DNA from: Microcaecilia unicolor
Lineage: Eukaryota
Assembly: GCF_901765095.1 (NCBI RefSeq)
Contig: NC_044034.1
Location: 62,434,339-62,498,338 of the forward strand
DNA length: 64,000 nt
Direction: 5' to 3'
Shown: piece after piece, positions 4,101 to 38,592 of the stretch
How positions within the stretch are numbered: the first letter of the stretch is position 1
How the letters are laid out: every line of letters begins with the position of its first letter
Translations under genes and position numbers: made by a program
Notes under the pieces: model-generated
Database searches by the model: none
What the model was told of the DNA's origin: nothing
What the model saw: the letters and a program-made list of their open reading frames with translations, nothing else

Positions 4101-6120
4101 AAGTCATAGCAAGACCTGAAAGTATTTATTAGTATGATCCACCTGAAATTGCTATTACCCACATACCTATACTTCATGAGATTTTGCAGATGAACTCATG
4201 GATTTGTCCCATTCATAAAACCTCTCTCACTACAGGTTTGAGTTAGCCTCAAGAGGGGTAACATCAAGATTAAGGCCCAAGGGATTGAGTAATATAAAGG
4301 GAATTCCATATGCCCAAATAATATATCACCTGAGAATGAAGTTTCCTATCTTGCACCATACCTTCTAACAATTTGTAAGACCAAAACTCCCCCTCTCGTT
4401 TGATAGCTTACCACCTTCTGGAATGGATGATGACAAGCTTGACGAGCTTTGTGTCACCCCTCTCCAGAGGGGGTGACAAGTGGGGAATGTATAATTATAC
4501 TACAGCAAGAGGCCCTCACTGGATGCCCACCGAAAGGGTGGAAGGCCAGATTTTAGGACTCAGGCTGTAAAAATACCAGCTAGGTTTAAAAATCTATGAC
4601 TGGCTGAGCATGGACTTGCTTTTCCTGCAAGTTAATATGTGTTCTACCCTAAGATCTATCCACTGGAATAGTGGCAGGCCAAACTACATAGCTTTGTACA
4701 GCTGAAAAGCACTGCCTAGGCCTGATAACCTACTAATGGCCTTATAGAACAAAATCAGGTACAAATTGAATGTAGCACTTATTAAAATGGAGTTTGTCTT
4801 TCTATAAGATGAAACTTAGATCATAAGATAATAGAAAAAGGGGAAGTGAAACTGATATGCTAAGAATAAGATGTTCTGGCAGAAGAGAAAAACATGTTGA
4901 CAAAAGAGGAAATTGCGAAATAACTTGCAATAGCTGGAACGGAAAGAGTTGGGTACAGAACAACAGATGGCAGGACACGACAGTTTAACCACAGAAATTG
5001 AGAAATAGTTGAAAAAAAAAACAGGTCCCAAAATAGGTCCAGCCATAGACTTCTATTGAGAGAAGAGAGTATAAAAGAAGGGTGATTTGGGCTTAATTTC
5101 GGAGTCCGTCCCCAACGCCTTGAAAGCAGCGAAGTTCTGTCCGGTTACTTCCAGAATCGGTACCGAACTGAAGACCCTACTCGGGGTGAGCTGTCAGACT
5201 GAATCTGTAATTTGTACCAACTTGAAGACTTGTGTTTGGGTAAGAAATAAATTATACTTATCTTCCTAAAACTATGTTTGTCTTAATTTCTGTCTATTCC
5301 TTATTTCCTTTTTATTCTACCAACGAAATTAGAAAATACAATTGACACTCATTGCCTGTACAAAATACTGTTACATTTTAATAGAATACATTTGGGTACA
5401 CAGATAACTAATGATTCATTTAGATCCTGATAGACATAAGACCATGATCATGGGCCTTATCTTAGAGTCAGTTGTACACCAGGAATATTACTGGGATGGA
5501 CTTTCAAGAGAATTTAGGCAGGCAGCCCAACAGATAATGGAAGCGCAGACCTTTTGTCCTTGGAAAAGGGTACTCCTGGTGCGCAAAGCGGGCCAATAGA
5601 TAGAATTTACAGTAGCCTGACTGACCATTGGGTGAGACAGTTCCATTTTCATCTGTCTCAGTGTAGTTATAACTGTTCCATCCTAATCTGTTTCTTTTTC
5701 TCTTTCTGTTTCAGTGTTCCTGTGCCTGTTCCTGCCTTGGAGATGGACTGTGATGGTCCTGTTTCTGGACCTCTGGGCATGCCTTGGTGTTCCTGCTAAT
5801 GTTTCTGTTCCTACTCCTGCCCATCAGCAGGAACACCAGGGCAGTTCCAGGAACAGTAAGATTGTGGCAGGCCTCAGTGTGTACCCTGTTCCTGGGCCTG
5901 CCTCAGTGTTCTGTTCTTGGCCTGGGCCTACCTCAGTCGGCATTGCAGCTAGTGTTTTCCAGGTGCGCTGCTTGTGTTTCCAGGTGTGCTGCTTCTATGT
6001 TTTTTTTTTTTTCCAGGTGCTCTGTTCCTGCCTCAGCCTGTATCCTGTTCCTCTTGCCTCAGCATTTCCTGTCGGGATCTTCTTGATACTTAAGCTAAGT
6101 TCTTGCTTAAATTAAGCTAC

Positions 6121-6240
6121 AAACAAATGTAATTTGAAAAGTATATACATATATTCTCGAATTTCTCATTAATAGTCACGATTTCCTCATGAATATTCAC
6201 AATTTTTCATGATTATTCACGATTTCGCATGAATAGTAAC
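6121..6240. repeat. Minisatellite of about 5 units of ~21 bp (tcacgatttcctcatgaatat / tcacaatttttcatgattat / tcacgatttcgcatgaatag)
   Basis: Direct reading of tandem near-identical units. Confidence 0.7.
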
Positions 6241-7949
6241 TTTGGGCTCCTTTTGGGCTTTTTTTGGCCAGAGATTGGGCTGGAAATTTTTTTGCAACCT
6301 GGCAACCCTGAATGTTGGAGGTGTGTTTTATTATATAGGATTACTACTCCACCTGTGAATAGTTATTCCGTTAATATACTTCCTCTGTGTACATCCGTAC
6401 GCTGCACAAGCAGGCATGTTTGAAAATATAAGCGAGATTAAATAGAAATAGAAATGCTACCAACATTCAATAAAGAGCGACAACGTAGATGCAGCTGCTC
6501 ATAGGTTTGCTTGCTTTGTTTTGAGAGTACGGCAATGACGGCTGCGCGGGGAAAGGGGAAACTGAGAATGACCAACATGGGGTAAGATCAGTGCGCATGC
6601 TCTTGGTACATCCGTGGGTGAGGGACCCGGGTGTGCACGTAAGTTCACTGCGTTCTATGGACTGACTCTCGAGCCAGTCCTGAGAGGGCTGCTGTGCTGA
6701 TCTTAAAGAATCTTTGTGCTGCGCGAGGTGAGCGCCTCTATTTTTGTGTTCTGCTCAGGTGTCACGTTTGAGTCGAGGTGTATAGGGGGATCTAGTTTAT
6801 CCCTCATCTCCCCTTAGTGAAATCACCAACAGCATAAATTCCTTATCCTCGTGCATACCTTTTACTTTATATACTGTTCTTGAGATGTTTTCCACTCATT
6901 ATAAAAATTATTCTGAACTGAATTAAGCTATATATATAAAATGTCCCTCGTTTTTATTATTATTATTATTTTTTTTAAGTAAATGCAGTTGTGGGTTTTT
7001 TTGTCCACTCTGCTTTCGTTTTCTTCCTCTTTTTTTTTTTTTTTGTTAAATCATCTTTATTAAGGTTATTTGACATGACAGTCATACAAAATCATATAGA
7101 GCCGAATTATATTCGTTATTAACATGTTATGTATGTAAATATCAAGGAACATTACGCTTAAACTATGAAGCATAAAAATGAGCAGGCGAGAGGAAACATT
7201 CTTACGGTACAGTGGAGATTTTTGAGTGTTTAGGTAAATAATGATAAAACTTAAGCCATTTCCGCTTACATTTACAAGTTGGGGAAATGAACTTTAGAGA
7301 AATGTCTTCTTATTCTTATTTCCTAAACAATAAAGTATTCCACCGTAAAAAATGGACAAGTTAGAATTATCTTTCCAATGCTGAATAAACAATTTTAGAG
7401 CTATGGAGATAAGAAAATCAGAGAGGCTTCTTCATCTGAAAGAGAGTAAGACATTACTAGAGACACCCAAATAATGTGTTTACAAGCTAAGGGTTCTGTA
7501 AACTGTATAATATCCTGTATTTTGGACCACATATCAAGCTAAAAGGTGTTTACATTGTTACAATCAAATAATATATATTTAAATGAGCCTTTTTGCTTGG
7601 AGCAGGACCAAGATAAATTGGTAGAGGAAAAGTAAAACTTTAATATTCAAGTTAGTATGAAAGTATAGCCATTTGTAATCTGTGTCAGTTGAAAAATTGG
7701 GAGTCGGGGAGGGAAAATTCTTGTTGCAATTGTGCAAATGTTTTAAACTTTCCATTAGATATTAATTGAGAAAGAAGCCACAGATTATTTTCCTTATACC
7801 AAAGGGCCCAATCAAATATCAATCTTTATTAAAGGACTAGTAAAAGAAGCCTGTTTCAGAGCTTTCGAAAATAAGCCTGATTCTGTTTTATCCCAATTCA
7901 CTTTGTAGCCTGATATGTGGGAAAAATCTTTAAAGTTTAATATATGAGG

Positions 7950-8730
7950 AATTGAATTGGGGGTAATATAGAGTGGATTTTGTCTGTCCAATGGCTAAAG
8001 TTTCTGTTGCTAAATTAAATAAAGGGGGGCAGGGGGACATCCCTTTCATGTACCCCTGGATACAGAGAAAGCAGACGAGCATATTATTGACAGACGATTT
8101 TGGTTTGGGGTTTCAAATACAGGATTTTAATCATATTAATAGGAGTGTCAAAACCAAACCAGAATAGAACCTTAAATAAGTAAGACCACTCTACTGTATC
8201 AAGTACCTTCTATGCATCCAGGGATAATGCAGTCAAGGGCTGTGAATAATTATGCGCTAAGGAAAATATATTACAAAAAAGTCTTGAGTTATCTGTAGTG
8301 GATTTACTTGGTAAAAATCCATTCTAATCTGGATGGATTAATGACTGGAGAATGTAGGACAACCTTAAAGCCAGCAGTTTGGCATATATTTTACTGTCAA
8401 GATTTTATAAGTGAGATAGGTCTGTTATTCGCTACATAAGCAGGATCTTTTCCTGGTTTAGGGAGAATAGCAATTTTGGCCTCTACAAAAGAGCCAAAGA
8501 CTTTTTGATCAGTAATAATATTATAACAGGAATGCAAAAGGGGACAAAGGTCTGAAGAAAAGACTTTGTAAAATTCGTCCAAGAGACAGTCGGGTCCTAA
8601 TGCTTTATTTAATGGACATATTGTAATGGCTGACTTGATTTCTTCTAGCGTAATGGGGAAGTTAAGAGACTCCCTCTTTCTCTGCGGTGGTATTGCCGGA
8701 CCTGTTGTCATTCTGGGCCCCGCCAGCATT
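7950..8730 (-). mobile_element. L1-like LINE fragment covering the N-terminal RT region of ORF2, with frameshifts
   Basis: Minus-strand ORF 8397..8729 carries 'NKALGPDCLLDEFYKVF…ILPKPGKDPAYVANNRPISLIKS'. After a frameshift it continues with 'AKLLALRLSYILQSLIHPDQ', below 8397. These are the standard L1 RT motifs 0 through 2. Confidence 0.55.
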
Positions 8731-8779
8731 GTCCGCCTCCAGCTGCTGTTGTCTGCCTCTGGTGACCACTACCATTCTC

Positions 8780-9065
8780 CTGGCCACATATTGCTGTTTC
8801 GCCTGCGCTTACTGGGTATTGTTACAGCTCCCAATTGTGGATCGCCTTGCCGTGAACTGTTCGAACCACTCTGGGCCATCTCCACATCTGGATTTCCACA
8901 GTCCATCTTAGTCTCTCTTCCCTTTCCCTTTTCCTTTTTACCCTGTTCCTTCTCCCCTATCCAATGTAATTGTAATTGATTAATCTGTACATTGTAAGCC
9001 ACTTTGAGTCTGCTTTAAGTGGAAAAAAGTGGGGTATAAATGTTCATAAATAAATAAATTGAGAT
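8780..9065 (+). mobile_element. SINE-like element ending in the family's conserved tail (…gtaagccactttgagtctg…gtggggtataaatgttcataaataaataaa)
   Basis: The tail matches the SINE at 38400..38592 (…gagtgggaaagcgcggggtacaaatgtaataaaaataaaataaataaa) and the copy at 12895..13100. The 5' extent is uncertain. Confidence 0.4.
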
Positions 9066-9465
9066 TCTGTTAAAGTTGAATGGGAAAGTTGTGAGAAAAA
9101 AAGCATCTAAGTATTTATCAGAGGTAGAAGACTGAGGAATATAGTGACTGATAGAAGTTTTGGAAAAGATTGGCAATATAATTTTTATTGACGATACCTT
9201 TTGAAGAGTCATTCAGTGAAGTTACTCTACTTTTGGTGCATTTACCTAAGGTAAGAGGCCAGGAGACGACCTGTCTGCTTTAACTTTCTATTCCATCCAA
9301 GGAGTACAATTCAGTTTGGGATGTGTTCTACCAAATTCGATGGGCTCAATCAGTTTCAACATGAGTTACTTAGCTGGCTTACCAGATTCAGCATGGTATC
9401 ACTATTTTTCAGTTACAGAGAAATACAATCAAAGAGGTTCGGTAGTTGGTGATGATTCAGAGCTG

Positions 9466-10326
9466 GCTTAGTTACCCTACTAGAAGAAGAAGAAACAAAA
9501 CAGCAAAGATGACCAACAAAAGCAAAAAACAAAAAATATAAAAAAAAAAAAATATATATATATATATATAAAAAACATCAAAATTTAAAATTAATCATAA
9601 AATATGTATTTAAAAGATGAATCCATCAAAATCAAAAAATTACATAAAAAAGACGACACTTTGGATGTAAAAATGAAGAATCAACTTTATTAGCCAAACT
9701 GTAGCAGGGAGAAAGGGACTCGACACAGCTGTGTTTCGGCCGTACTGGCCTGCGTTAGGAGTCTTCTCTGCCGTCTGTTGATTATTAATTCTATCCAAAT
9801 ATAAAAAGAATATGTGTGTCAATAAACTGAAGCTATAGTGCTCAATTGTACTGGAAACAAAGCTGCTCTGATCTCTGCTCAACAACTTTGTTTCCAGTAC
9901 AATTGAGCACTATAGCTTCAGTTTATTGACACACATATTCGTTTTATATTTGGATAGAATTAATAATCAACAGACGGCAGAGAAGACTCCTGACGCAGGC
10001 CAGTACGGCCGAAACACAGCTGTGTCGAGTCCCTTTCTCCCTGCTACAGTTTGGCTAATAAAGTTGATTCTTCATTTTTACATCCAAAGTGTCGTCTTTT
10101 TTTTATGTAATGTTTTGATTTTGATGGATTCATCTTTTAAATACATATTTTATGATTAATTTTAAATGTTGACGTTTTTTATATATATTTTTTTAATTTT
10201 TATATTTTTTGTTTTTTTTTGTTGTTTTTTTTGCTTTTGTTGGTCATCTTTGCTGTTTTGTTTCTTGTTGATTTCCTTGCGAAGACTGGTTTCTTCTGTT
10301 TTTTTGTACTTAGTTACCCTACTACA
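9466..10326. repeat. Near-perfect ~860-bp foldback palindrome. Each arm is ~400 bp, the loop is ~25 bp centred near 9880, and the whole structure is flanked by the direct repeat cttagttaccctacta.
   Basis: Sequence 9484..9868 is the reverse complement of 9905..10300. The ORFs at 9640..9885 (-) and 9926..10159 (+) encode the same peptide, as a palindrome predicts. The 16-bp direct repeat sits at 9467..9482 and again at 10311..10326. Confidence 0.8.
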
Positions 10327-17203: not shown

Positions 17204-17336
17204 GATGGCTGTGGGAATCTTTGCAAACTGTGTGTTCTTTCTGAAAGTGAACCGTTTATCTGTTCTGGACAAGAAAAAGATTAAAAGTCACATACAAGAA
17301 AATGGGGGAGTAATTTCTTTTGTGCTAAATGAAAAG
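17204..17336 (+). CDS. PARP4: PARP4 (vault PARP) start-codon exon. The acceptor AG is at 17202-17203, the ATG at 17205 and the donor GT at 17337. It encodes MAVGIFANCVFFLKVNRLSVLDKKKIKSHIQENGGVISFVLNEK, the N-terminal half of the BRCT domain.
   Basis: Human PARP4 starts MVMGIFANCIFCLKVKYLPQQQKKKLQTDIKENGGKFSFSLNPQ, a near-colinear match. The acceptor context is ttttgttttgacag|G. There is an in-frame stop directly upstream of the ATG. The donor is AAAAG|gtattg. Confidence 0.8.
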
Positions 17337-17699: not shown

Positions 17700-18420
17700 T
17701 ATTTATTGAGGTACAAGACATTCACATTCATGCAACAAAATGAAAAGACATAGTCCTAAATCACAATTCACAGCAAATGAACAGATTGAAATATAAACAA
17801 CAACAAAAGACAGTACCCTCAGCTGAGTACTATTTTAACATCCTGCCCAATTTTAATTACCCAACAGACAGCCCCCCCCCCCCACTCCTGGAACATCTGC
17901 AGGTCCCTGAAATAGTGCAACATAAAGTTGCCAAAGGGAACGATAAGCCTGATTCATCAGCTTTTGGTTAGACTTAAGCTGTTCCTGCTCCCAACGAGCC
18001 ATCTGAAGCATCTGTGCATTCCAGTGTTGCAAGGGTGGCGGGCTTTCAGCAACCCAGTGTACCAGTATGGTCTTCCTGGCCAACATTAATGCTACACAGA
18101 TAAAACGACCCTGAGAATCAAGTATACCCTGTCCACTTAAAGCAGATTCATCCCCAAAAGTAACACTCGGTAAGACCATTCAATGGTTAAATTAATCACT
18201 CGCCCCAAAGATGCAAGATCCAAAAGTCCCGTATTTTCATACATTCAAGGAAGTGATTCACAAGAGTGCCCACCGCACAATGGCATATCACACAGGTATC
18301 ATCAACCAAAAGACCCATCTGCTTCCCCCTAGAGCTAGTGATAAAAGCTCTGTACAATAGCTTGAACTGCATCTCATGCAGACTAGCACTGGGAATGGCC
18401 TTGAAGGCCAACACAAAGCA
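17700..18420 (-). mobile_element. 3' end of an L1-like LINE (the Cys-rich C-terminal domain of ORF2)
   Basis: Minus-strand ORFs 18196..18414 and 17853..18179 read 'LYRAFITSSRGKQMGLLVDDTCVICHCAVGTLVNHFLECMKIRDFW'. This is the usual C-terminal C..C…H…C cluster of L1 ORF2. Confidence 0.55.
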
Positions 18421-18465
18421 GGCAGCCAGTTCTGACTCAGATAAGTCCTCTCCCAGCTGCCCAGT

Positions 18466-19310
18466 CTACCATGAGGCCAAATGAGAGGGTCGATGTTCCC
18501 TGCCTACGGCGTACCACGCCGCCAATTTATTTGCTGTCAAGTCCCTTACCTCTGGGCCGGCGAGGCCTCCGGCAGCATGAGGACGCCCCGCTGTCTTGAC
18601 GCCGTAGTGCTTTCCACCGGTGCGGCCGGGTCCTCCGGCGGTGCGGGGTCGTCCGCTCCCTTGACGTCCGACGCACCGTTGGCGGTGGTTCGGCGTTCCG
18701 TCTCGTAGCGCCGAAGGTACTCCGGGGCCGTTCGGGTCCGTGGGCCCACCTCCCTGCTCCGCAGGGATTGGTCTTCCTGCGGGCAGACTCCTGCACTCTT
18801 CCCCCCTCGGCATTCCAGCCTATGGCAGCGCTCCTTTCCAGCTGATCTCTTTCAGCTGCAATGATCTGCTCAACTTCAGGGCGCTGCCTCCCTGCCTCAT
18901 CGTTTCGGCTTCTACTAAGGTAGGCGATTCACTCTCTCTGTTCGTTGCTGTATTACTTGCTCCTGCCTCTGACCCTTGCTCGGACCCAGACTACTCTCTG
19001 CCTGCTGCCAGTCTCTGACCCTTGCTCAGACTTGGATTACCTTCGGCCTGCCTCTGACTTCTGCCTTTGCCTGGGAACATCGCTCACTTACTTTTGGCCG
19101 ATTCCTCTGCATCCTTTTTTCCCAACCTACTGAAGTCCTGCCGGCCGCCCGCCCGCACCTGGGGGCTCAACCCCCAGGGACCGGCGGTCACCGCAGGTGA
19201 AGTTTCGGGGTTGCTCGGCTGCCTAGCAGAGCCCCGGTTTGAGTCTCTCTCATCTGTGCTCCGCTTGGCACAGGGACTCACAAGGGCGACATTTGCTGAC
19301 AGAAAAGTTT
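18466..19310 (+). repeat. Unclassified ~850-bp interspersed repeat, copy 1. It has a CpG-rich 5' half, internal ~45-bp tandem subrepeats and a conserved 3' block (cacctgggggctcaacccccagggaccggcggtcaccgcaggtga).
   Basis: It aligns along its whole length with 40370..41260 in the same orientation. The overlapping ORFs on both strands (18466..18813 and others) are compositional artefacts of the CpG-rich sequence. Confidence 0.6.
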
Positions 19311-19979
19311 ATCCAATGTGGCAAAAGAATGTCCCCGGACACCAGAAGGGACTAGGGATACACAGTAAAGCCGTAGCTGAAAGAAAGCTAAGAAGTCAGA
19401 ATGAGAAAGCTGCCATTGTGCCTGTGCAAACGAAGGGAAGACAGCCCCCTCTGGATCTGTAAAATGTCCAACATAGTGACAGCCCCCCTTCGCCTATGCC
19501 CTAAAACAGGTTGCACCCTGCTCCTCCAGGAAGTGAGGGTTGTCAACCGTTGCTAGAAAAGGGGAGGAACCAGATGCTTCCCTGGAACGGAGTCTCCACC
19601 ACATCCACACCCAACGAAGTGGGTGGAGCAGAGGGTGCAGCCCCCCCACCCCATCATGGGCAACTGTAAAAGGTTAAAAGCTGATTCCATATCATCAAGC
19701 TGATCAATCCATAGACTGGTGGGTTGTGTCCATCTACCAGCAGGTGGAGATAGAGAGCAAACTTTTGCCTCCCTATATGTGGTCATGTGCTGCCGGAAAC
19801 TCCTCAGTATGTTCTCTATCTCAGCAGGTGGTGGTCACACACAGCAGCAGCTCTGGCTAGGCCTCCAAGCCTAATCCTTAGGTTTTGTTGAGGCCTGGGG
19901 TTGAGGGCTCTTTTGAGCAAGTGCAAACCTGGTGGTGCCAGGTCCCTCCTTTTCTCCCCCCTCCCGCTGGCTCCGTTTA

Positions 19980-20012
<33 letters not shown>

Positions 20013-20533
20013 TAAACGTCTTTAAAGGCGTTTAATTCGACGTTTCTTTAAACGTTCATTGCAGCTACTCACTGGGACACCAGTTCGTTACAGCTCGGAG
20101 CGGCAAGCAGGTAATTTTACCTTTTTATAGCGGGCAGGGGGTTTCCCGATTCTTCTCCTCGTGGCAATGGCGTCGGAGGGCGAGGGCGCAAAGGGTCGCT
20201 CCCCGGATCGCTGGAGCGCTTCTAGAGGGGATGCGGGGGTTTTACAACCTGATTCGCCCTTGATGGGTGATAGATAAGTGACCGATGAATGTCCCGGTCG
20301 TTCCTCCGGCGTGGCGGTTTTTTCCCGCCATAAACGCCCATCCCCCGCTCCTCGCCTCCGCCATCTTGGCCGGCCACGCGGCTCGGACGGCTTCTTCGGG
20401 GCCGCCCTTGAGGTTGGAGACATTAATGCCATGAACGCCCTTAATTTGGGCGACGGCACAAAAGCGGCTAAAGTTAAGCGCCGTTCTTCCCGCGCGGCTC
20501 CTTCACGGAGTTTCGCGCCGGACGCCATTTTGG

Positions 20534-21883
20534 ATGCGCAGCATGTCTCTCCCCCGCTATTGCGAGCGCCGGTTGAGAGTGCGTCTAGGGCTGTTGCCCA
20601 GGCTGCGGAAGTGCACAGTCTGGGGGGTTTCTCCCCCGAGTTTGTTTTGCTGCTGCATCAGGCTTTCCTCATGCAAAACGCTGCCCCTGCTCCCTCTTCT
20701 GATAAAGAGGTTGAGGTTCCCAGAGGTAAACGCCCTCGGGTTGATTTCCAGGCCTTGGAGGACTTTTGTCTCCTCTGATGTAGATGAGGGCAGCGTGTCT
20801 GAGGTCTCCCAACGATCCTTTGCGGATTCCTTGGAGGAGATAGATCCCCGCTCGGATGGAGCGGATGACCCCTCTGCAGCGCGGCTTTTTAGCCCAGAGG
20901 ATTTGCCCAACCTGTTGTTACAGGCCATGGACACTTTGAAGATTTCCTCTCCGGAGGACGTCTCTCCCTCAGCCCCTGTTGGCTCTGCCATTATGCTGGG
21001 GACGAAGCGCCCGCCTAGAACCTTCCACGTGCATGATGCCATGCACACCTTAATTGCGGCTCAATGGGATGTCCCGGAAACGAGCCTTAAAGTGGCTAGG
21101 GCTATGTCCCGCCTCTATCCTTTGGCTGTGAGTGAACGTGAGGCCTATCTGTGGCCTACCGTGGATTCTTTAATCACTGCGGTGACTAAGAAAACGGCGT
21201 TGCCGGTGGAAGGTGGCACGGCCCTAAAGGACGCCCAAGACAGAAGATTGGAGGCGGCCTTAAGGTCGTCCTTTGAGGCAGCTGCTTTAAGTTTGCAGGC
21301 CTCAGTTTGCGGCTCCTATGTGGCCAGGGCGTGCCGGACTATGGTGCAGCGGGCTTCCCCCTCGGATCATTCCTTGAGGGCTGATTGGCCGGCCCTGGAA
21401 TCGGGCTTAGCCTATTTGGCAGACTTGCTGTATGATGTCTGGAGAGCCTCAGCTAAAGGCATGGCTCAGACAGTCTCTGCGCGGCGGTGGCTTTGGCTGA
21501 AACATTGGTCTGCTGACCACGCCTCTAAATCCCGCCTGGCTAGATTGCCTTTTAAAGGCAAGCTGCTCTTTGGGGTCGAGCTGGACAAAATCGTGACTGA
21601 TCTCGGCACGTCTAAGGGCAAGAAATTACCAGAGGTCAGGGCTCGGGTTAGTACTCGTCCCGATACCTCCATACCGCCCGGGCAAGTCGGGTTCCTCTGC
21701 CCCCTCTTCCTTCAAGAGGAATTTCTCCCCCAAGCAGCATTCCTTTCGCAGAGACCGCCGTCCCGGAGGTGCTCCCTCCGGTCCTCCCCCAGGGTCTCGT
21801 ACCCAATGACGGGGCCTTGGTCCACGCCCCAGTGCAGATTGGAGGACGGCTGTCCTCGTTTCTGGGCGAGTGGACCACTATAA
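20534..21883 (+). CDS. DIRS ORF1 (putative Gag-like protein)
   Basis: 449-aa ORF lying between the left ITR and the RT, in the position of DIRS ORF1. It has no catalytic motifs. Confidence 0.5.
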   Translation: MRSMSLPRYCERRLRVRLGLLPRLRKCTVWGVSPPSLFCCCIRLSSCKTLPLLPLLIKRLRFPEVNALGLISRPWRTFVSSDVDEGSVSEVSQRSFADSLEEIDPRSDGADDPSAARLFSPEDLPNLLLQAMDTLKISSPEDVSPSAPVGSAIMLGTKRPPRTFHVHDAMHTLIAAQWDVPETSLKVARAMSRLYPLAVSEREAYLWPTVDSLITAVTKKTALPVEGGTALKDAQDRRLEAALRSSFEAAALSLQASVCGSYVARACRTMVQRASPSDHSLRADWPALESGLAYLADLLYDVWRASAKGMAQTVSARRWLWLKHWSADHASKSRLARLPFKGKLLFGVELDKIVTDLGTSKGKKLPEVRARVSTRPDTSIPPGQVGFLCPLFLQEEFLPQAAFLSQRPPSRRCSLRSSPRVSYPMTGPWSTPQCRLEDGCPRFWASGPL

Positions 21884-23706
21884 CTTCAGACGCGTGGGTG
21901 CTGGAAGTCATCAGAGACGGCTACAAGCTAGAGTTCTGCCAACCCTTAAGAGACGGGTTTGTACTCTCTCCCTGCAAGTCTCCGGTCAAGCTGTGGTAGT
22001 GCAGCAGACCTTGGACAACCTGATCCGCCTGGGTGCGGTCGTTCCGGTGCCAAAAAATCAGATTGGCAAGGGGCGTTACTCCATTTACTTTGTGGTTCCA
22101 AAGAAAGGAGGTTCTGTCCGGCCTATCCTCGACCTCAAAGGGGTCAATCGGGCCTGGAAAGTGAGGCACTTTCGCATGGAGACTCTCCGCTCTGTTATAG
22201 CGGCAGTGAAGGCAGGAGAGTTCTTGGCTTCCTTGGACATCAAGGAAGCGTACCTGCATATTCCCATCTGGCCTCCTCTCCAACGCTTTCTGCGTTTTAC
22301 AGTCCTGAGACGACACTTCCAGTTCAGAGCCCTCCCTTTCGGGTTGGCTACTGCTCCGCGGACCTTTTCCAAAGTAATGGGGGTCATAGCGGCCTTCCTG
22401 CTAAAGGAAGGAGTACAAGTCCATCCTTATCTGGACGACTGGTTGATCCGAGCCCCCTCTTATGCAGAGTGCGGCAAAGCTATGGACCGGGTAGTTGCTC
22501 TTTTGAGCTCCCTGGGATGGATCATCAACTGGAAGAAGAGCCAGCTGCGCCCGACTCAGTCCCTGGTGTATCTGGGAGTTCGATTCGACACCCAAGTGGG
22601 CAGAGTGTTCCTGCCAGACAATCGGATTGTCAAGCTTCAGGCTCAGGTGGACTAGTTCCTAGTAGCCTCTCCTATTCGGGCTTGGGACTACGTGCAGCTG
22701 TTGGGCTCTATGACGGCCACGATGGAAGTAGTGCCCTGGGCCAGGGCTCATATGAGACCACTACAGCTATCTCTGCTGCTGCGCTGGACTCCGATGTCGG
22801 AGGATTATGCTGTGCGCCTTCCCGTGGACCCAGCAGTGCGCAAGGTGCTGAGCTGGTGGACGCAGACAGACAAGTTGTCTGCAGGATTGCCTCTGGTGAC
22901 CCCGGAGTGGATTGTCGTCACGACAGACGCCTCTTTGATGGGCTGGGGAGCCCACTGCTTGGGAAGGACAGCGCAGGGGCTCTAGTCTCCTGCAGAGGCA
23001 AGTGGTCTATCAACCTCCTGGAACTCAGAGCCATTCGCTTGGTGTTATTGGAGTTCATCCCGGTACTCGTGTTGAAGCCTGTACGGGTCCTGTCGGACAA
23101 TGCCACGGCTGTGGCCTATATCAACCGCCAGGGAGGTACCAGAGCGCCCCTCTAGCCAAGGAGGCTATGAGTCTTTGCCAGTGGGCGGAAGCGAACCTGG
23201 AGCAGCTTTCAGCGGCCCACATTGCCGGAGTCATGAATGTCAAGGCGGACTTTCTCAGTCGCCATACCTTGGAGCCCGGAGAGTGGCAACTATCTGCTCA
23301 GGCGTTCTTGGACATCACGAAGCGCTGGGGCCAGCCGAGCCTAGATCTGATGGCGTCATCGGCCAATGGCCAAGTGCCGCGCTTTTTCAGCAGAGGACGG
23401 GACCCTCGATCCCTGGGAGTAGATGCTCTTCTCCAACAGTGGCCGACACAAGAGCTCCTCTATGTGTTCCCGCCCTGGCCCATGTTGGGCAGGGTGCTAG
23501 ACCGGGTGGCAAAGCATCCCGGCAGGGTAATCCTGGTGGGTCCGGATTGGCCCAGACGTCCCTGGTATGCGGACTTGTTCAGGCTCTCAGTCGACGATCC
23601 TCTGCGGCTGTCAGTGGAGCAGGGCCTGTTACATCAGGGTCCCGTGGTGATGGAGGATCCCTCTCCCTTTGGTCTTACGGCCTGGCTATTGAGCGGCAGC
23701 ATCTGA
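21769..23706 (+). CDS. DIRS pol: reverse transcriptase (YLDDWLI), RNase H, and the DIRS/Ngaro-specific domain (…LLYVFPPWPMLGRVLDRV…ILVGPDWPRRPWY). It is interrupted by at least two frameshifts or stops, near 22655 and 22985.
   Basis: ORF 21870..22655 carries RT motifs (PILDLKGVNR…, FLASLDIKEAYLHIP, YLDDWLI). ORFs 22692..22985 and 23002..23706 hold the RNase H segment and the conserved DIRS domain in other frames. Confidence 0.75.
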
Positions 23707-24746
23707 GGAAGAAGGGCTTCTCAGACAAGGTCATCGCCACTATGCTGAGAGCGAGGAAGCGCTCTACTTCTACTGCTTACGCCAGGGTTTGGCGTATCTT
23801 TGCAGCATGGTGTGAAGCAGGCTCACTTTCTCCCTTCACTGCTCCAATTTCTTCAGTGTTGGCGTTCCTGCAAGAAGGTCTGGAGAAAGGCCTGTCGCTC
23901 AGTTCCCTTAAAGTCCAGGTAGCGGCTCTGGCTTGCTTCAGGGGCCGCCTGAAGGGTGCTTCCCTGGCTTCGCAGCCAGATGTGGTGCGCTTTCTCAAGG
24001 GAGTTAATCACCTGCGCCCTCCTCTGCACTCAGTGGTGCCTGCGTGGAATCTCAACCTGGTGCTAAGAGCATTGCAGAAGCCGCCTTTGGAACCCTTGTC
24101 GAGGGCATCTCTGAAAGACCTGACGTTGAAAGCAGTCTTTTTGGTGGCTATCACTTCAGACAGAAGAGTTTCCGAGCTCCAGGCACTCTCATGTCGAGAG
24201 CCTTTTCTGCAGTGCACTGAGGCAGGAGTGACTATTCGCACAGTGCCTTCCTTCCTGCCCAAGATTGGTTCTCGCTTCCATGTGAATCAGCAGCTCTGTC
24301 TCCCTTCCTTTCGTAGGGAGGACTACCCAGAGGAGTACTCCGCTCTTGAATATCTGGATGTGAGACGAGTCATCATCAGATACTTGGAAGTGACCAATGA
24401 TTTCCGGAAATCGGATCATCTGTTTGTCCTGTTTGCAGGTCCTCGTAAGGGTCTGCAGGCTGCTAAGCCTACAGTGGCAAGATGGGTCCAGGAAGCCATT
24501 GCAGCGGCTTATGTGGCCGCAGGGAAGGTGCCGCCTATCCAGCTGAAGGCTCACTCCACGAGAGCTCAGGCGGCCTCGATGGCAGAGGCCGGATCCGTCT
24601 CCTTGGAAGAGATATGCAAGGCGGCAACGTGGGCTTCGGCTCATACATTCTCCAAGCATTACCGTTTGACTGTGGCTGCACGGGCGGAGGCCCGGTTTGG
24701 AGCTTCAGTGTTGAGGTCAGGGATTTCTATGTCCCGCCCTGGGTGA
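23100..24746 (+). CDS. DIRS tyrosine recombinase, an intact 548-aa ORF
   Basis: C-terminal catalytic signature '…LKAHSTRAQAASMA…ICKAATWASAHTFSKHYRL'. This supplies the R…H-x-x-R…Y residues of lambda-integrase-like recombinases as seen in DIRS. Confidence 0.8.
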   Translation: MPRLWPISTAREVPERPSSQGGYESLPVGGSEPGAAFSGPHCRSHECQGGLSQSPYLGARRVATICSGVLGHHEALGPAEPRSDGVIGQWPSAALFQQRTGPSIPGSRCSSPTVADTRAPLCVPALAHVGQGARPGGKASRQGNPGGSGLAQTSLVCGLVQALSRRSSAAVSGAGPVTSGSRGDGGSLSLWSYGLAIERQHLRKKGFSDKVIATMLRARKRSTSTAYARVWRIFAAWCEAGSLSPFTAPISSVLAFLQEGLEKGLSLSSLKVQVAALACFRGRLKGASLASQPDVVRFLKGVNHLRPPLHSVVPAWNLNLVLRALQKPPLEPLSRASLKDLTLKAVFLVAITSDRRVSELQALSCREPFLQCTEAGVTIRTVPSFLPKIGSRFHVNQQLCLPSFRREDYPEEYSALEYLDVRRVIIRYLEVTNDFRKSDHLFVLFAGPRKGLQAAKPTVARWVQEAIAAAYVAAGKVPPIQLKAHSTRAQAASMAEAGSVSLEEICKAATWASAHTFSKHYRLTVAARAEARFGASVLRSGISMSRPG

Positions 24747-26591
24747 GTACTGCTTCGGTACATCCCACCAGTCTATGGATTGATCAGCTTGATGATATGG
24801 AAGGTAAAATTATGTATAATCATACCTGATAATTTTCTTTCCATTAATCATAGCTGATCAATCCATAGCCCCTCCCAGATATCTGTACTGTTTATATTCT
24901 GGTTGAATTTTAGGTTCAAGTTTAGCCTTCAGTTACTTCAGGAGGACTTCGTGTTCAAGTTCTTCTTTCACTTGGATTCTTCAAGAGTTGAGACGACTTT
25001 GTGTTACAGTGAGCTGCTGCATTCCTCTCCCCTCCGTTTTACGGGGCTGGATTGAGACATAAATTCTGCCGGCACTCCCTCCCGCTTCGTGCGGCTGTAG
25101 GGCAGCTTTGTACCCCTCCCGCTTCGGCGGTGTTAGGGTCAGTCAGCTCCTCCCGCGGTTGCGGTTGCAGGATAAGCCAGATCCCCCCGCATCGGCGGGT
25201 GTGGTGTCCCTCTCCCGCTCCGCGGGGATGAGCTGGACGGATTCCCCTCCCCCACTTGTGTGGGGATGAGCTGGGTTAATTCCCCTCCCCCGTTTCGGCG
25301 GTGGTGAGCTGGGCAGAGTGTCCCTTCGTGGGTGTAATTCTCTAAGTGCTGAGTCCTGCGGATGGAGCTTTGATATCGACATACTGAGGAGTTTCCGGCA
25401 GCACATGACCACATATAGGGAGGCAAAAGTTTGCTCTCTATCTCCACCTGCTGGTAGATGGACACAACCCACCAGTCTATGGATTGATCAGCTATGATTA
25501 ATGGAAAGAAAATTATCAGGTATGATTATACATAATTTTACCATAAGGATAAGAGCAGTCCGCTCATACATAACGTGGTGCATAGTTGTAAACACCAGTA
25601 TAAAGCTCATGTATCCACCTGATCAGCGCTGTAACATTGTAAAGACGTAAATCTGGTAGATGAGGCCCTCCCCCCGTGACTGGGAGTGAATGAATTTAGT
25701 GTAGCTAATCTGTGCCCTACATCTGGCCCAGAGAAATGATCCTACAGTCCCTTTATATAATGCTTCCTCCTTTATAGCAATCAAGGAGGGGCAACATCTG
25801 TAAAGGGTACAGTATTTTGGGGGGCATGACCATTTTTTCCAGCACCACTCTGCCCAATAATTGCTTATATGTGCTTTTATAGAATAGGCTCACAGACCGT
25901 GTTCTTTATGCGCCCATCTTGTAGCTAGGACTGGCACGCCCTTAGCCAACTTTTTGCACTGGCACCGATGCCCCCTTCACTCCACTACAGCCTGTAATCC
26001 AGTATCTCCCTTTGTCGCTCAAGCCCTGCCCCCCTTCCCCCCACTGGACCAGGTGAGGCACTGGCTCAAGATGCTGGTGATAAAGGGCACCAGAATCCCA
26101 ATTAGACATCTACCCCTCTAGGAGTTTGAAGGTAGGCCTTTATCTTCAGTGCCCTGAGCCAGTGCCTCACCTGGTCCATAGGTTGAGCTGGCCCTGCTTG
26201 TAGCACCCAATTATAGAATTGTCCCCTTTAATGTATGACATCTGATACAGGTGGGAAGTCTAAACATAGCTAATGTTGAGTCCTTCCAAAGCAAGACATT
26301 TTTTTTCTGTGTGGAATAAAGTTGTTGTTGTTTTTTTTTTTTTTTAATCTGCCAACTTTGCTCCTTTTTTGATCGTCGGCTATTTGACTATGAAGGCTTT
26401 TCCTCTTCTTTTTTTTGTGATTAATACTACAATTGAATTCCTTCAAAAAGGCAGTAAATAAATCCTAAATAATAAATTACAGTGTGCTGTGTCTCAGAAA
26501 ATGCTCATGATCTCTGTCCCTAAGTACAGTTATTGCCGGCAGTTAAACATTTAGAGAAGTATAATGATTGCAGTTATTTTATATTTTCCAG

Positions 26592-26787
26592 TGCTCTCAC
26601 ATCATTGTGGATAATATTGATGCATTAAGTTCTTATAAGCTGAAAACCATTCAGAAGTATCAAATCCCCGTTTTACTCAGTGACTTCATCCAGAATTGTG
26701 TTGAAGAAAGGCGGCTCCTACAAGCTGATGATTACGTTGCTAAAAAATCAGTTCAGATAGATCCAAAGAAAGGGACAGAAAGTCAAG
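26592..26787 (+). CDS. PARP4: PARP4 second coding exon (C-terminal half of the BRCT domain): CSHIIVDNIDALSSYKLKTIQKYQIPVLLSDFIQNCVEERRLLQADDYVAKKSVQIDPKKGTESQ
   Basis: Human PARP4 continues CTHIILDNADVLSQYQLNSIQKNHVHIANPDFIWKSIREKRLLDVKNYDPYKP. The acceptor is ttttatattttccag|TGC and the donor is CAAG|gtaaag. Phase 0 matches the end of the exon at 17204..17336. Confidence 0.8.
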
Positions 26788-35300: not shown

Positions 35301-37800
35301 TGTAGGCAAGGAAGGAATGGAAGTTGGAACTTGGAACACTCTGGTGCCCACATGTAAGATTTGTCTCTGATTCACTGGCAGTGTGTGCTGAGAGGCCGCC
35401 ACATGCACGCGCCAGTAGGTCAGGTGACATCTGATTCTCGTGCCTGTGTCAGAGCTGAGGTCTGTGCACCAGCCTGGGAGCAAAGAGGATTAATAGTAAC
35501 ATAGTAAGTGACAGCAAATAGACCTGAACGGTCCATCCACTCTGCCCAATAGTCACACTCATGATCAATTCATCATTAAATCAACGAGTGTGATATTATA
35601 TACTTGATTATGGTCTTTCTTTCGTGTTTCTGGAACAAAGACCACAGGAGTCTATCTGGCCCCATCCTTATGTTCCAACTGCTGGAGTTGCCATCAAAGC
35701 CCACTCCAGCCTATTCATGTTCTCATTTGTGGGACACAGACCGTAAAAGTCTGTCCAGCACTGTCCTCATGTTCCAGCCACTGAAGTTGCTGTCTAAGCC
35801 CTTTCCAGCCCATCCTACACCAGATTGCCATGTATGAGACACAGAACATACAAGTCTGTCAGGTATCAGCTCTAGTTCATCACAGCCAGAGTCGCCATCT
35901 AAGCGTCACTTGACACATCCACACACATGCAGCCATTTAAGGTTAGCTTTTATATAACTTCCATTTTCTAATTAGAGATCCTCTGTGTTCATCCCACGCC
36001 TTTTTGAATTCCGTCATCATTTGTGACTCTACCACCTCCTTAATGGAAGACTTTCCACATTTATGCTGTTAAAGCAAGGAAGAAGAGGAGGAGGAGGAGG
36101 AGACAGCACTCAAAGAAATTGGTATTCGGTAGATGAGAGGCTGGTGCAGGTGCAGCTTACACTTCCACGGGAAGCCCACAGAACTGCCTCCGTCCCCGCG
36201 GGAATCCCGCTGAACTGCCTCCGTCCCCGCGGGAATCCCGCTGAACTGCTTCCATCCCCGCGGGAACCCCGCAGGAACTGCCTCCGTCCCCGCGGGAATC
36301 CCGCGGGTTCCGCGGGATTCCCGCGGGGACGGAAGCCGTGCAGCTCTCTACTCTGTATGCTGCTGTACAGACTGAGGAAATTGACAATTATTTGGCTGCT
36401 CGGGGTTTGTCGGTTTTATCTGAATTACAGAGAAGGGAACTGGAAGCTCCGGTGACGGTGGACAAGGTGATGCAGGTTATTAAGACATTGCTGACGGGTA
36501 AGGTGCCGGGTTTGGATGGATTTACGAATGAATTTTTTTAAAGACCTTTGTGGGGGAGTTGGCACCCTATTTGACGTTGGTCATTAACTCTGTTAGGGAT
36601 GGTGTGTCTTTTCCCAAGTCTATGATGGAGGCCTGGTTGGAGGTAATTCCAAAACCAGACAAAGATAAAACTGAATGTGCATCATATCGCCCTATTTCTA
36701 TACTCAATACTGTTGTTAAAATATTGGCTAAGGTGCTTGCGAATCGTTTGGGCAATGTGCTTCCTAATTTAATCCATCTAGATCAGGTCGGTTTTGTAGC
36801 AAAGTAGCAGGCAATGGATAATATTCGTAAAACTTTGGACTTACTTTATGCATCTCAGTTGAAAGCCTGGCCTGTGGGGTTATTAGGACAGGATGCTGAA
36901 AAGGCCTTTGACAGGGTACATTGGGGATATTTGGATAAGGTTTTACATCGATTTGGGTTGGGACCGTTTTATAGGTCCTGGATTCAGGCGTTCTATTCTT
37001 CGCCGCAGGCTTGTGTGAGAGTAAATGGGGAGAATTTGGGGGCTTTCTTTTTGGGGCGTGGTACCAGACAGGGGTGTCCGTTGTCTCCTCTTCTATTTGC
37101 TCTGGCGATGGAGCCTTTAGCGGCAGCTATTCAAGAAAATGTAGACATCACCGGGGTAAGGGTGGGAGAACAGGAACATAAAATCACATTATTTGTGGGC
37201 GATGTTCTCCTGTCCTTGACTAAACCGTTAGTTTCTCTTCCTAACTTAATGAAGGAGATGGCGGCGTACTCACAGATATTTGGATACAAGTTGAATGCGA
37301 GTAAGTCCACTGGGATGGCTGTGGGGGTATCACCTAGGCTGATGGAGGCGTTGAAGACTTCCTTTGCTTTTAAATGGTCTGTCAGAGATCTTCGCTGTTT
37401 GGGGGTTCAGATTCCTGGGAACCTGTCAGAGTTGTTTGCTGTTAATTATCCGGCTGTTCAGAAGGCGATGCAAAGAGATTTGGATAGATGGATGTCCATG
37501 GGTCTCACCTGGTTTGGGTGGATTGCTGCGATTAAAATGAATATTTTACCTCGCTTATTGTATTTATTTCAGGTACTTCCCTTTCCTTTGTCTAGGTCAT
37601 TCAAGACAGTTTGATTCGTTTTATTTGGTATCATAATAGACCGCGTGCTTTTTTATATAAGAGTAAGCATGCTGGGGGATTAGGGGTATCTAACTTGTTC
37701 TGGTATTATTGTGCTGCGCAGTCTAGATCGGCTCTTGAGTGGTTTCAGAGGGAGGATCATAAATTGTGGGTACATATTGAGCAATCTTTGGTTTCTCCAT
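32399..37800 (+). mobile_element. Degenerate L1-like LINE (lineage 1). ORF1 at 32399..33368 has stops. ORF2 endonuclease is at 33813..34565 and RT at 36338..37614. A hAT-like element has split it at 35031..36358, and its 3' end is replaced by a gypsy-like fragment.
   Basis: ORF1 motifs (…LENWGRRQNLRF*GVPE…, …ARVSIYQDLS…YRWAFPF…). EN motifs (…VFLQETDF…, LVAGDFNAT…). RT motifs (KVPGLDGFTNEFF, YRPISILNTVVKILAKVLANRL, GTRQGCPLSPLLFALAME, FIWYHNRPRAF…GGLGVSN). Confidence 0.75.
35031..36358 (+). mobile_element. Non-autonomous hAT-like DNA transposon, copy B. It has 15-bp TIRs (tagagagttgcacgg / ccgtgcagctctcta, 14 of 15 matching), an 8-bp TSD ctctgtat, subterminal ~22-bp repeat arrays and an internal CR1 3' fragment on the minus strand.
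   Basis: The TSD ctctgtat lies at 35023..35030 and 36359..36366. It interrupts L1 ORF2 between '…FYETLY' and 'STLYAAVQTEE…'. The terminus TAGAG fits the hAT YARNG consensus. An 8-bp TSD is typical of hAT. Confidence 0.75.
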
Positions 37801-37829
37801 GCAGGAGAAAGAGACGTCAGAGTCTCAAC

Positions 37830-38400
37830 CTTTGTCTGTATTGTGGTGATACTGGACATTATGCGGCCAGGTGCCCTCTTAAACCGGCACCCCTGGATCA
37901 GGGTTTGACAGCAGGCACTATAGTAAGTCTATCTTCTGACATTCTTCGTACTCAATTCTAGGTGCCAGCTGTGCTCGATCTTGGTCACAGAAAGGAACAG
38001 ACTGAAGTTTTCCTGGACTCTGGGGCTGGTGGAAACTTTATAACCGAGGCCCTGGTTCATCAGTTAAACATTCCTATACAAGAACTACCTAAGACCATGC
38101 CGCTTTTTTCAGTTTATGGACGCATTCAAGGTTATGTAAACACCCAGACGGGTCCGGTGAGCTTATGTATTGGGGATCACAGAGAAGACATTTCCTTTTA
38201 CGTCCTCCAGTCAGCCGTGCAACCCATTGTGTTGGGTCTACCGTGGATACAGAGCCACAATCCGATCTTAGACTGGGAAAAGGGTGAGATTTTGGACTGG
38301 GGTGAGTCCTGCAGGAAGGATTGCCTCGTGTCGGATCATGGTGAGATTGACAGCGAACGGCAAGACCAAGAATCAGATGCCTGGACTGACATGAAGTGGA
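37830..38400 (+). mobile_element. Fragment of an LTR-retrotransposon (Ty3/gypsy-like): the Gag CCHC zinc knuckle, then an aspartic protease
   Basis: CLYCGDTGHYAARC (C-x2-C-x4-H-x4-C) is followed by '…VFLDSGAGGNFI…' with the DSG catalytic motif. Then '…VLGLPWIQSHNPILDWEKGEI…', a typical retropepsin C-terminus. Confidence 0.65.
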
Positions 38401-38592
38401 AGAGTGGCCTAGTGGTTAGGGTGGTGGACTTTGGTCCTGGGGAACTGAGGAACTGAGTTCGATTCCCGGCATAGGCAGCTCCTTGTGACTCTGGGCAAGT
38501 CACTTAACCCTCCATTGCCTGCCGCATAGAGCCTGCCATGAGTGGGAAAGCGCGGGGTACAAATGTAATAAAAATAAAATAAATAAACATTA
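38400..38592 (+). mobile_element. tRNA-derived SINE with a MIR-like core and an A-rich tail (…gggtacaaatgtaataaaaataaaataaataaa)
   Basis: tRNA-like head ggcctagtggttagggtggtggac…gagttcgattcccggcataggcagc with a B-box gttcgattccc. The core ctctgggcaagtcacttaaccctc resembles the MIR/Deu core. A minus-strand copy of the head lies at 41811..41925. Confidence 0.7.

Follow-up and report, generated by a model that had tools for sequence, protein, structure and literature searches.

Positions 19685-25542 of the 64-kb stretch of Microcaecilia unicolor DNA analysed here (the window) very probably are a single DIRS1-like retrotransposon of the tyrosine-recombinase class, 5,858 bp long, lying in the intron that separates the first and second coding exons of PARP4, in the orientation of the gene. 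Its coding set comprises a gag-like ORF homologous to LAP2alpha, RT and RNase H, a putative Dam-like domain, and a tyrosine recombinase (YR) with the fold of Cre. This type of element is already well described as a superfamily, and the copy is a routine one, closely like published DIRS1-like elements of Xenopus and Anolis. Judged from the assembled sequence, it keeps both termini, the ICR and the catalytic domain of the recombinase, and it appears non-autonomous: four or five 1-nt frameshifts and two nonsense codons inactivate gag and pol. Since gag and pol are broken, it should be incapable of moving unaided, and mobilisation in trans by intact relatives would be the most that it could undergo. 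The element and its setting are laid out as follows.

17205-17336, + strand: PARP4 coding exon, residues 1-44, start of the BRCT domain (tblastn; PDB PARP4 chain 11jf_P, E 2.5e-31; splice signals)
19685-19812, + strand: left terminus, with a 13-nt divergent outer part (19685-19697) and then a 115-nt conserved ITR (19698-19812)
19813-20277, + strand: 5' untranslated leader, with A20 and then a (TA)n run at 19979-20010
20278-21807, + strand: remnant of gag-like ORF1 (Pfam LAP2alpha E 7.9e-17, above the cut-off; 43% identity to Rhinatrema gag)
21649-23706, + strand: pol (RT / RNase H / Dam-like MT), broken (Pfam, three-frame reading, tblastn with Rhinatrema pol, repair test)
21959-23155, + strand: open frame-2 ORF of 398 aa, which as far as ~22998 lies in the -1 frame of pol, upstream remnant of an ancestral long YR ORF
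23100-24746, + strand: 548-codon ORF ending in the tyrosine recombinase (ORF list, frame comparison, repair test)
24165-24662, + strand: YR catalytic residues R157 (24165-24167), K189 (24261-24263), H286 (24552-24554), R289 (24561-24563), W312 (24630-24632) and Y322 (24660-24662)
24760-24868, + strand: ICR (109 nt), left half 24760-24802 the reverse complement of 19685-19727, right half 24803-24868 that of 25477-25542
24869-25378, + strand: non-coding spacer between ICR and right terminus, with a 38-nt repeat present 2.8 times at 25208-25313
25379-25542, + strand: right terminus, with conserved ITR (25379-25493), divergent part (25494-25506) and right extension, rE (25507-25542)
26589-26765, + strand: PARP4 coding exon, residues ~45-103 (tblastn; PDB PARP4 chain 11jf_P; splice signals)

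The repeats delimit the element at both ends. The conserved ITR pair (19698-19812 and 25379-25493) is 115 nt long and 100% complementary, as seen both in the repeat search and in a direct check, while the ICR consists of the element's first 43 nt and, directly after them, its last 66 nt, each in reverse complement, with a T at 24763 (A expected) as the sole mismatch. With blastn E-values of 5e-56 for the ITR, 2e-28 for the right and 3e-14 for the left half of the ICR, chance is excluded. A first-pass annotation of this DNA had already proposed a DIRS retrotransposon with both ITRs and an ICR, which repeat search, direct check and coding domains bear out. It had placed the ICR at 24761-24866 as exactly the reverse complement of the joined outer ends and had named a failure of this complementarity as what would speak against it; on realignment the complementarity holds at 108/109 positions and the junction ...TTTTACC/TTCCATATC... 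is as described, but the coordinates were 1-2 nt short at each end and the match is not exact. Target-site duplication is absent: the immediate flanks, GCTGA on the left and ATAAG on the right, share no repeat, and neither do the longer ones, ...AAAGCTGA and ATAAGGAT. Joined without the element, the flanks would give an empty site of ...AAAAGCTGA/ATAAGGATAAG....

The dimensions of the repeats (divergent ITR 13 nt, conserved ITR 115 nt, rE 36 nt, ICR 43+66 nt) match those of XtDIRS2 (20/102/30/43-61) and XtDIRS3 (11/123/34/41-65) of Xenopus tropicalis (PMC3266345 Table 3), and this supports the DIRS1-like assignment. These Xenopus elements (Repbase DIRS-37_XT type) resemble the window copy in size (5.6-6.2 kb), in the lack of a target-site duplication, in the order gag(LAP2alpha) - RT/RNase H/MT - YR - ICR and in a long overlap of pol and YR (PMC3266345, PMC9210276), as well as in their ITRs (~100-125 nt, the divergent outer part being short), rE (~30-36 nt) and ICR halves (~41-43 and 61-66 nt). 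They differ in their recombinases, which are only about 40-48% identical to the window YR, and in their ends, TTT/TAT with the 3-bp junction AAA, whereas the window copy starts with TTC, ends with ACC and has ICR halves that do not overlap. A 3-bp circular junction is thus absent here, and the flanking TGA and ATA repeat neither TTC nor ACC; such a junction, a trinucleotide overlap of the ICR halves that also stands at both element ends, is common (23 of 28 elements) and not universal (PMC3266345).

The closest relative found is a copy in Rhinatrema bivittatum (LR584395.1:85.58 Mb), whose YR ORF is 51% identical at the amino-acid level (about 60% within the catalytic domain), its pol 52-59% by tblastn and its gag 43%. 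Its termini and ICR can be aligned with their counterparts in the window element at the nucleotide level, its gag likewise stops on a CAATGA that overlaps the N-D codons of pol, and its YR ORF also lies in the -1 frame of pol. In contrast to the broken gag and pol of the window copy, all three overlapping ORFs are intact (576, 714 and 960 codons), while its 142-nt ITRs are 91% complementary and those of the window copy are perfect. Caecilian sequences are the nearest relatives of two transposable elements in the window (DIRS proteins, Rhinatrema, 53-60% identity; LINE ORF, a Microcaecilia protein, 41%).

The domain assignment draws in part on the comparison with Rhinatrema pol. RT matches Pfam RVT_1 (E 1e-21), with YLDD at 22428-22439, and RNase H (~22914-23265), which has the D, E, D, D motifs, was assigned via 52-59% identity to Rhinatrema pol, itself matching PF17917. 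The MT-like part (~23344-23577) gives a weak Pfam Dam match (E 0.0045; 17 bits, where the cut-off is 28); it shares 56% identity with the C-terminal portion of Rhinatrema pol, and one homologue carries a precomputed PF05869 match. The reading of pol passes from frame 1 to 0 (~21990), to 2 (~22998) and back to 1 (~23143), which amounts to three 1-nt frameshifts, and is further interrupted by in-frame TAG codons at 22653-22655 and 22983-22985. In gag, frame 1 is followed to ~20768, frame 2 from 20771 to ~21667 and frame 0 in a tail ending at TGA 21805-21807, with the LAP2alpha homology at ~21020-21607, and these changes of frame imply one or two putative frameshifts. BLASTP reaches significance neither for the weakly supported N-terminal shift (~20768; E 0.05-0.09) nor for the frame-0 tail (E 11), the tail being supported by nucleotide alignment and by its stop on CAATGA, as in the Rhinatrema relative. 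LAP2alpha-type gag is known for DIRS1 (PMC4495291), and LAP2alpha, RT and Dam domains occur in DIRS-like families of Xenopus (PMC9210276). Where about two frame disruptions in RT/RNase H had previously been counted, pol thus has five lesions, three of them frameshifts and two of them TAGs, to which gag adds one or two frameshifts, and the "frame breaks" reported at 22655 and 22985 are real disruptions of the assembled sequence but are both in-frame TAG codons.

Errors of assembly or consensus might lie behind part or all of the 1-nt shifts, the real copy then being nearer to intact. The ratio of indels to substitutions is high, with four or five indels against one substitution in ~224 nt of internally duplicated sequence, and two shifts fall at short homopolymers (~20768 in gag within a T4 run, ~23143 in pol next to a C4 run). 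Against this, the repeats carry no indels, the shifts at ~21990 and ~22998 lie outside long homopolymers, and the two TAG codons are substitutions that would leave pol inactive even so; we consider such errors unlikely. It is very improbable that the breaks are programmed, by ribosomal frameshift or readthrough, in an autonomous and active copy, a question that the first-pass annotation had raised. DIRS ORFs do overlap, expression from gag to pol in this lineage requires a +1 frame change, and all three pol shifts share one direction (-1), but in the intact Rhinatrema relative RT-RNase H-MT form one unbroken 714-codon ORF through all three shift sites, with Q and W at the positions of the two TAG codons, which contradicts recoding. 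Moreover, adding one base per shift site puts pol back in frame and also recovers a YR frame of 979 codons, and the three pol shifts therefore appear to be single-base deletions and not recoding signals.

The same repair bears on the recombinase. The 548-codon ORF begins with an ATG and ~14 codons in the +1 frame of pol, switches to the -1 frame at ~23143, stays in it to 23706 and includes a non-overlapping catalytic part at 23697-24743; on the evidence of the frames, it is the 3' remnant of an ancestral ORF of ~980 codons that overlapped pol in the -1 frame and was cut by the indels of pol. The recombinase ORF had been called uninterrupted and intact, which is right in that the ORF exists and its catalytic domain is intact, but it is only the 3' part of the longer one. 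The R-H-R-Y tetrad, whose absence had been named as counting against a DIRS recombinase, is present together with K and W, and these residues (R, K, H, R, W, Y) are conserved in 27-33 of 34 homologues. In hhalign and HMMER comparisons the R, H, R and W align with R173, H289, R292 and W315 of Cre (the residues of the Cre query for hhalign agree with the PDB alignments). The AF2 model (pLDDT 85) has a two-domain fold with Cre of phage P1 as its best match (Foldseek E 4e-9, TM ~0.6), although identity is ~17%, the Tyr is one residue farther from the Trp, and Cre is a phage enzyme whereas the window YR is part of a retroelement. Among 43 homologues the best come from Rhinatrema, Xenopus and Rana; PF00589 is matched by 3 of 8 short homologues, and a homologue-profile search of PDB gives only Cre/Tre as top matches. 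The window's own recombinase has no Pfam match at E<=1, plain phmmer against PDB finds Cre at noise level only, and the sequence-only match to Cre is marginal (E 0.002-0.005), so that the assignment rests on homologues and predicted fold.

That this ORF is held open by host selection, as a domesticated gene or an exon within PARP4, is highly improbable. It is open although gag and pol are broken, and DIRS1 gag has been domesticated elsewhere (LAP2alpha, PMC4495291), but with ~7 lesions in ~5 kb of coding sequence we infer a chance of roughly 0.2-0.3 that the ~1-kb non-overlapping YR part would escape, so the open ORF needs no explanation; the termini and ICR are likewise intact, as in a young insertion. 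We give almost no credence to a different YR element (Ngaro, PAT-like or Crypton), all of which encode a related recombinase, since split direct repeats (A1...B1A2B2) were not found, the only long repeats are the inverted termini and the ICR, other direct-repeat families in the repeat search are short or pieces of these, RT and RNase H, with a putative MT-like domain, in the same element exclude Crypton, and the MT-like domain (Pfam Dam, below cut-off) would argue against Ngaro, a Dam/MT-like domain after RNase H separating DIRS1/PAT from Ngaro and VIPER (PMC3266345, PMC9210276).

We tentatively suggest that the -1 frame of pol may be kept free of stops by selection and that the recombinase may then be a protein of ~950-980 residues. 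If so, its first ~620 residues would come wholly from the DNA that encodes RT/RNase H/MT, read in a different frame. In the intact Rhinatrema copy the pol gene has no stop in its -1 frame (14 expected), and in the window copy it has one (18 expected), the latter being the gag stop TGA 21805-21807 upstream of the long ORF, and none of 2000 synonymous shuffles reached so low a count. Such long ORF overlap is on record, its meaning left unexplained there (PMC3266345). As protein, the overlapping part of YR is weakly conserved (31% identity, against 59% for pol from the same DNA), and it may therefore be a disordered extension or a mere translational requirement.

In the proposed life cycle, DIRS RNA without the extreme ends is reverse-transcribed by the element's own RT/RNase H, the ICR, complementary to both outer ends, joins the ends of the cDNA so that the complete element is rebuilt, in the classical model as a closed-circle intermediate, and the Cre-like tyrosine recombinase inserts it without target-site duplication. 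The window copy retains the cis-acting termini and ICR, and intact relatives could at most supply proteins in trans. We know of no experiments on vertebrate DIRS1-like families. The founding member, DIRS-1 of Dictyostelium discoideum, likewise has inverted termini, gag, YR and pol ORFs that overlap and an ICR to which both outer ends are complementary, although it is distant in sequence and has longer ITRs, up to ~316 bp (PMC3266345). Experiments on DIRS-1 showed that the ICR is required for retrotransposition, that its proteins act in trans and that most of the cDNA is linear and single-stranded (PMC7192593).

The PARP4 setting proposed earlier, an intron in the orientation of the gene, also stands, given that one exon lies upstream (17205-17336) and the other downstream (26589-26765) of the element, all on the + strand. 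The tblastn result, obtained with a human PARP4 query, was confirmed independently against PDB chain 11jf_P. The N-terminal exons are 55% identical to a BRCT protein of Sphenodon. A 5.9-kb sense insertion within the portion of PARP4 that encodes the BRCT domain could alter how the gene is spliced or polyadenylated. Judged by the near-perfect repeats of this one copy, it is plausibly a young insertion; no second copy or fragment was found by blastn within the 64-kb window. The significance of the copy beyond annotation is small. Elements of the DIRS type occupy much of the genome in some amphibians, as in the caecilian Ichthyophis bannanicus with DIRS/DIRS at ~26-30% (PMC8498967), and the copy offers a clean, well-bounded DIRS1-like example whose termini and ICR can be used as a seed for a family consensus in the host genome.

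The element at 19685-25542 is very probably a DIRS1-like retrotransposon of textbook architecture, a new copy of a known kind and possibly a new family, which, judged from its sequence, is complete in its cis structure and defective in coding capacity. It occurs once in the 64-kb window (blastn) and has a GC content of ~57% compared to ~42% in its surroundings.

Inverted terminal repeats (ITRs) of the window element and its internal complementary region (ICR)
19685-19697, outer left end, 13 nt beyond the conserved ITR
19698-19812 and 25379-25493, inverted, conserved ITR, 115 nt with 0 mismatches (repeat analysis)
24760-24868, ICR, reverse complement of 19685-19727 (first 43 nt), then of 25477-25542 (last 66 nt)
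25494-25542, outer right end, 49 nt beyond the conserved ITR

The two ICR halves meet with neither gap nor overlap and match the termini at 108 of 109 positions, differing only at 24763, which has T against the A predicted from both ITR arms. These repeat matches are not due to chance, given blastn E-values within the 64-kb window of 5e-56 (ITR), 3e-14 (left ICR half) and 2e-28 (right ICR half). The first-pass annotation had correctly read the ICR junction (...TTTTACC followed by TTCCATATC...) and its complementarity to both ends, with coordinates falling 1-2 nt short on either side. Both ITRs and both ICR halves contain a 17-nt core, AGCTGATCAATCCATAG, as in elements described previously (PMC3266345). 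No target-site duplication was found in the flanks (...GCTGA and ATAAGG...), and insertion is described as tyrosine recombination without target duplication (PMC3266345). In the spacer between ICR and right terminus, a GC-rich 38-nt unit is repeated in tandem (25208-25313, 2.8 copies, 75% matches), and the 5' leader contains an A20 tract followed by (TA)n (19979-20010), comparable to an A-rich/TA run at 9531-9572.

With 5,858 bp, a divergent ITR of 13 nt, a conserved ITR of 115 nt, a right extension of 36 nt and ICR halves measuring 43 and 66 nt, the element lies within published values for Xenopus tropicalis and Anolis (e.g. 20/102/30/43-61 for XtDIRS2 and 11/123/34/41-65 for XtDIRS3; PMC3266345). 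Its sole departure concerns the 3-bp “circular junction”, on which the ICR halves of most described elements overlap and which also begins and ends the element (PMC3266345), whereas here it is absent, the halves abut, and the element starts with TTC and ends with ACC. Crypton is excluded by the presence of reverse transcriptase (RT) together with RNase H, and Ngaro and PAT were rejected as their split direct repeats are absent. All Xenopus DIRS-like families are reported to carry LAP2alpha in ORF1 together with RT/RNase H, DAM/methyltransferase and a tyrosine recombinase (YR) ORF (PMC9210276), and the gag ORF of a DIRS1-like element is the known origin of LAP2alpha (PMC4495291). Pfam matches in the window element are LAP2alpha (E 7.9e-17) in ORF 20534-21883, RVT_1 (E 1e-21) in 21870-22655 and, below threshold, Dam (E 0.0045) in 23002-23706.

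A protein of the caecilian Rhinatrema bivittatum matching the recombinase ORF (P0002) led to a locus inside a POT1 gene model (L001, LR584395.1:85581623-85596403) that carries the closest relative found, apparently an intact DIRS1-like copy, with three open ORFs, ITRs and ICR.

Features of the Rhinatrema copy, in the numbering of its own locus
3493-3634 and 9094-9235, ITRs
4105-5835, gag, 576 codons, open, LAP2alpha
5594-7738, pol, 714 codons, open, RVT_1 and RT_RNaseH
5899-8781, YR ORF, 960 codons, open, -1 frame, overlapping almost all of pol
8791-8899, ICR

Both elements share the same plan, and their termini and ICRs align at the nucleotide level. The Rhinatrema copy is also intronic and on the strand of the POT1 gene model.

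The ORF state of the window copy was assessed by three-frame reading and by tblastn, for which the Rhinatrema ORFs and further homologues served as queries. Its pol runs in frame 1 to ~21990, frame 0 to ~22998, frame 2 to ~23143 and then frame 1 to the stop at 23704-23706, and contains in-frame TAG codons at 22653-22655 and 22983-22985, where the Rhinatrema relative has Q and W, respectively. A one-base insertion per shift site, three in all, regains a single pol frame, and the same insertions regain a stop-free -1 frame of 979 codons to TGA 24744-24746. That one base per site mends both frames argues that the shifts are single-base deletions or assembly indels; programmed recoding sites, initially raised as a possibility, were rejected for this reason and because the Rhinatrema relative reads straight through. 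In gag, which is likewise damaged, frame 2 holds the LAP2alpha part and frame 0 the tail with its stop (TGA 21805-21807), on the same CAATGA as in the Rhinatrema relative, where it overlaps the pol N-D codons; a further gag shift near 20768, at a T4 run, seems likely, if weakly supported. The lesions thus total five in pol and one or two in gag, instead of the “about two” frame disruptions first reported.

Pfam gave no match for the 548-aa recombinase ORF. Among its 43 relatives the best come from Rhinatrema bivittatum (identity ~53% overall and 60% across the catalytic portion); next are Xenopus, Rana and further frogs, a snake and tuatara. Three of eight short homologues matched Pfam Phage_integrase (best E 7e-7). 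Only Cre/Tre recombinases stood at the top when the homologue profile was compared to PDB (E ~0.005), and hhalign aligned 259 columns to Cre (E 0.002). Cre was also the best Foldseek match (E 4e-9, TM ~0.6) of an AlphaFold2 model of the product of 23697-24743 (mean pLDDT 85), followed by XerA, XerH, lambda integrase and Tn1549 integrase.

Catalytic residues of the window recombinase (each shared by 27-33 of 34 aligned homologues)
24165-24167, + strand, R, on Cre R173
24261-24263, + strand, K, conserved in the homologue alignment
24552-24554, + strand, H, on Cre H289
24561-24563, + strand, R, on Cre R292
24630-24632, + strand, W, on Cre W315
24660-24662, + strand, Y, conserved in the homologue alignment

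The R-H-R-Y tetrad is therefore present, and the Tyr-to-Trp distance is one residue shorter in Cre than here. Of the intact recombinase ORF claimed by the first-pass annotation, the catalytic domain holds, while the 548 codons are the 3' part of an ancestral long YR ORF: they start at an ATG (23100) that belongs to pol's +1 frame, within the conserved RNase H motif SDNATAV, and it is solely the deletion near 23143 that links this start to the YR frame. A Xenopus protein (P0005) starts at the same ATG (MPRQW... versus MPRLW...). Two Rhinatrema proteins matching the DIRS recombinase ORF carry other labels, namely P0001 (“heterogeneous nuclear ribonucleoprotein A1 isoform X1”, 474 aa), which matches over essentially its full length and is therefore a mis-annotated transposon ORF, and P0004 (“protein-glutamate O-methyltransferase isoform X1”), found by database search.

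The -1 frame of pol is open over ~620 codons (21805-23706 in the window; 5899-7738 in the Rhinatrema locus). Synonymous-codon shuffles of pol (n=2000) predicted 14-18 stops in this frame, compared to none observed in the Rhinatrema copy and one in the window copy, namely that of gag, upstream of the long ORF. As no shuffle (0/2000) gave counts this low, selection might maintain the open frame, a reading we hold only tentatively. Over the same DNA, the overlapping-frame protein is 31% identical between the two copies versus 59% for pol. A long pol/YR overlap with the catalytic YR in the non-overlapping 3' end is known from many DIRS1-like elements including XtDIRS2/3 (PMC3266345); the overlap itself is thus not new.

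The internal duplicates (ITR arms; termini versus ICR) differ by one substitution and no indels over ~224 positions, which fits a young insertion and in this respect agrees with the “recent” copy proposed at first, although a single copy provides no date. The ratio of indels (four or five) to the very few substitutions is high. We estimate that ~7 lesions would spare the non-overlapping YR part (~1 kb of ~5 kb coding) with a chance of roughly 0.2-0.3, so its intactness needs no special explanation.

PARP4 exons were first located with the human sequence and then matched to PDB chain 11jf_P (E 2.5e-31); all four are colinear with human residues 1-106, 138-161 and 200-247 and have splice signals.

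PARP4 exons in the window
17205-17336, + strand, first coding exon
26589-26765, + strand, second coding exon
43720-43761, + strand
48226-48369, + strand

The first two coding exons thus place the element in an intron on the same strand as the gene, as originally proposed, within the BRCT-coding part. Several further transposable elements occupy the window's introns.

Other repeats and ORFs
21-1127, + strand, 368-aa ORF, CCHC zinc knuckle (E 3.5e-5), probably gag of a retroelement
18000-19684, GC-rich ~1.7 kb left of the element (bin 18001-20000, 54% GC, includes its first ~300 nt), with a 131-aa ORF at 19067-19462; perhaps a further repeat, with the element inserted inside or beside it
26045-26178, inverted repeat (42-nt arms 86% complementary, 50-nt loop) ~400 nt upstream of exon 26589; possibly a MITE or a small repeat able to form a hairpin
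36814-38456, + strand, ORFs matching RVT_1 (E 2e-20) and an aspartyl protease of retroviral type (E 8e-6), in the second PARP4 intron of the window; probably part of an LTR retrotransposon
50453-51958, - strand, LINE-type RT ORF, 501 aa, RVT_1 E 3e-31
53672-56110, + strand, LINE-type RT ORF, 812 aa, RVT_1 E 1e-38, best database relative (41% identity) within a gene model of the caecilian Microcaecilia unicolor; strong positive GC and AT skew, as at 50453-51958
59009-59911, + strand, 300-aa ORF with DDE_1 endonuclease domain (E 3e-48), characteristic of pogo/Tigger DNA transposons

The window copy combines intact termini, ICR and recombinase catalytic domain with broken gag and pol. According to published work (PMC7192593), an incomplete transcript regains its full-length ends only by means of the ICR, and in Dictyostelium most of the cDNA intermediate is linear and single-stranded. 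The window copy would be unable to transpose alone, but would keep what mobilisation by intact relatives requires in cis, if these are present in the host.
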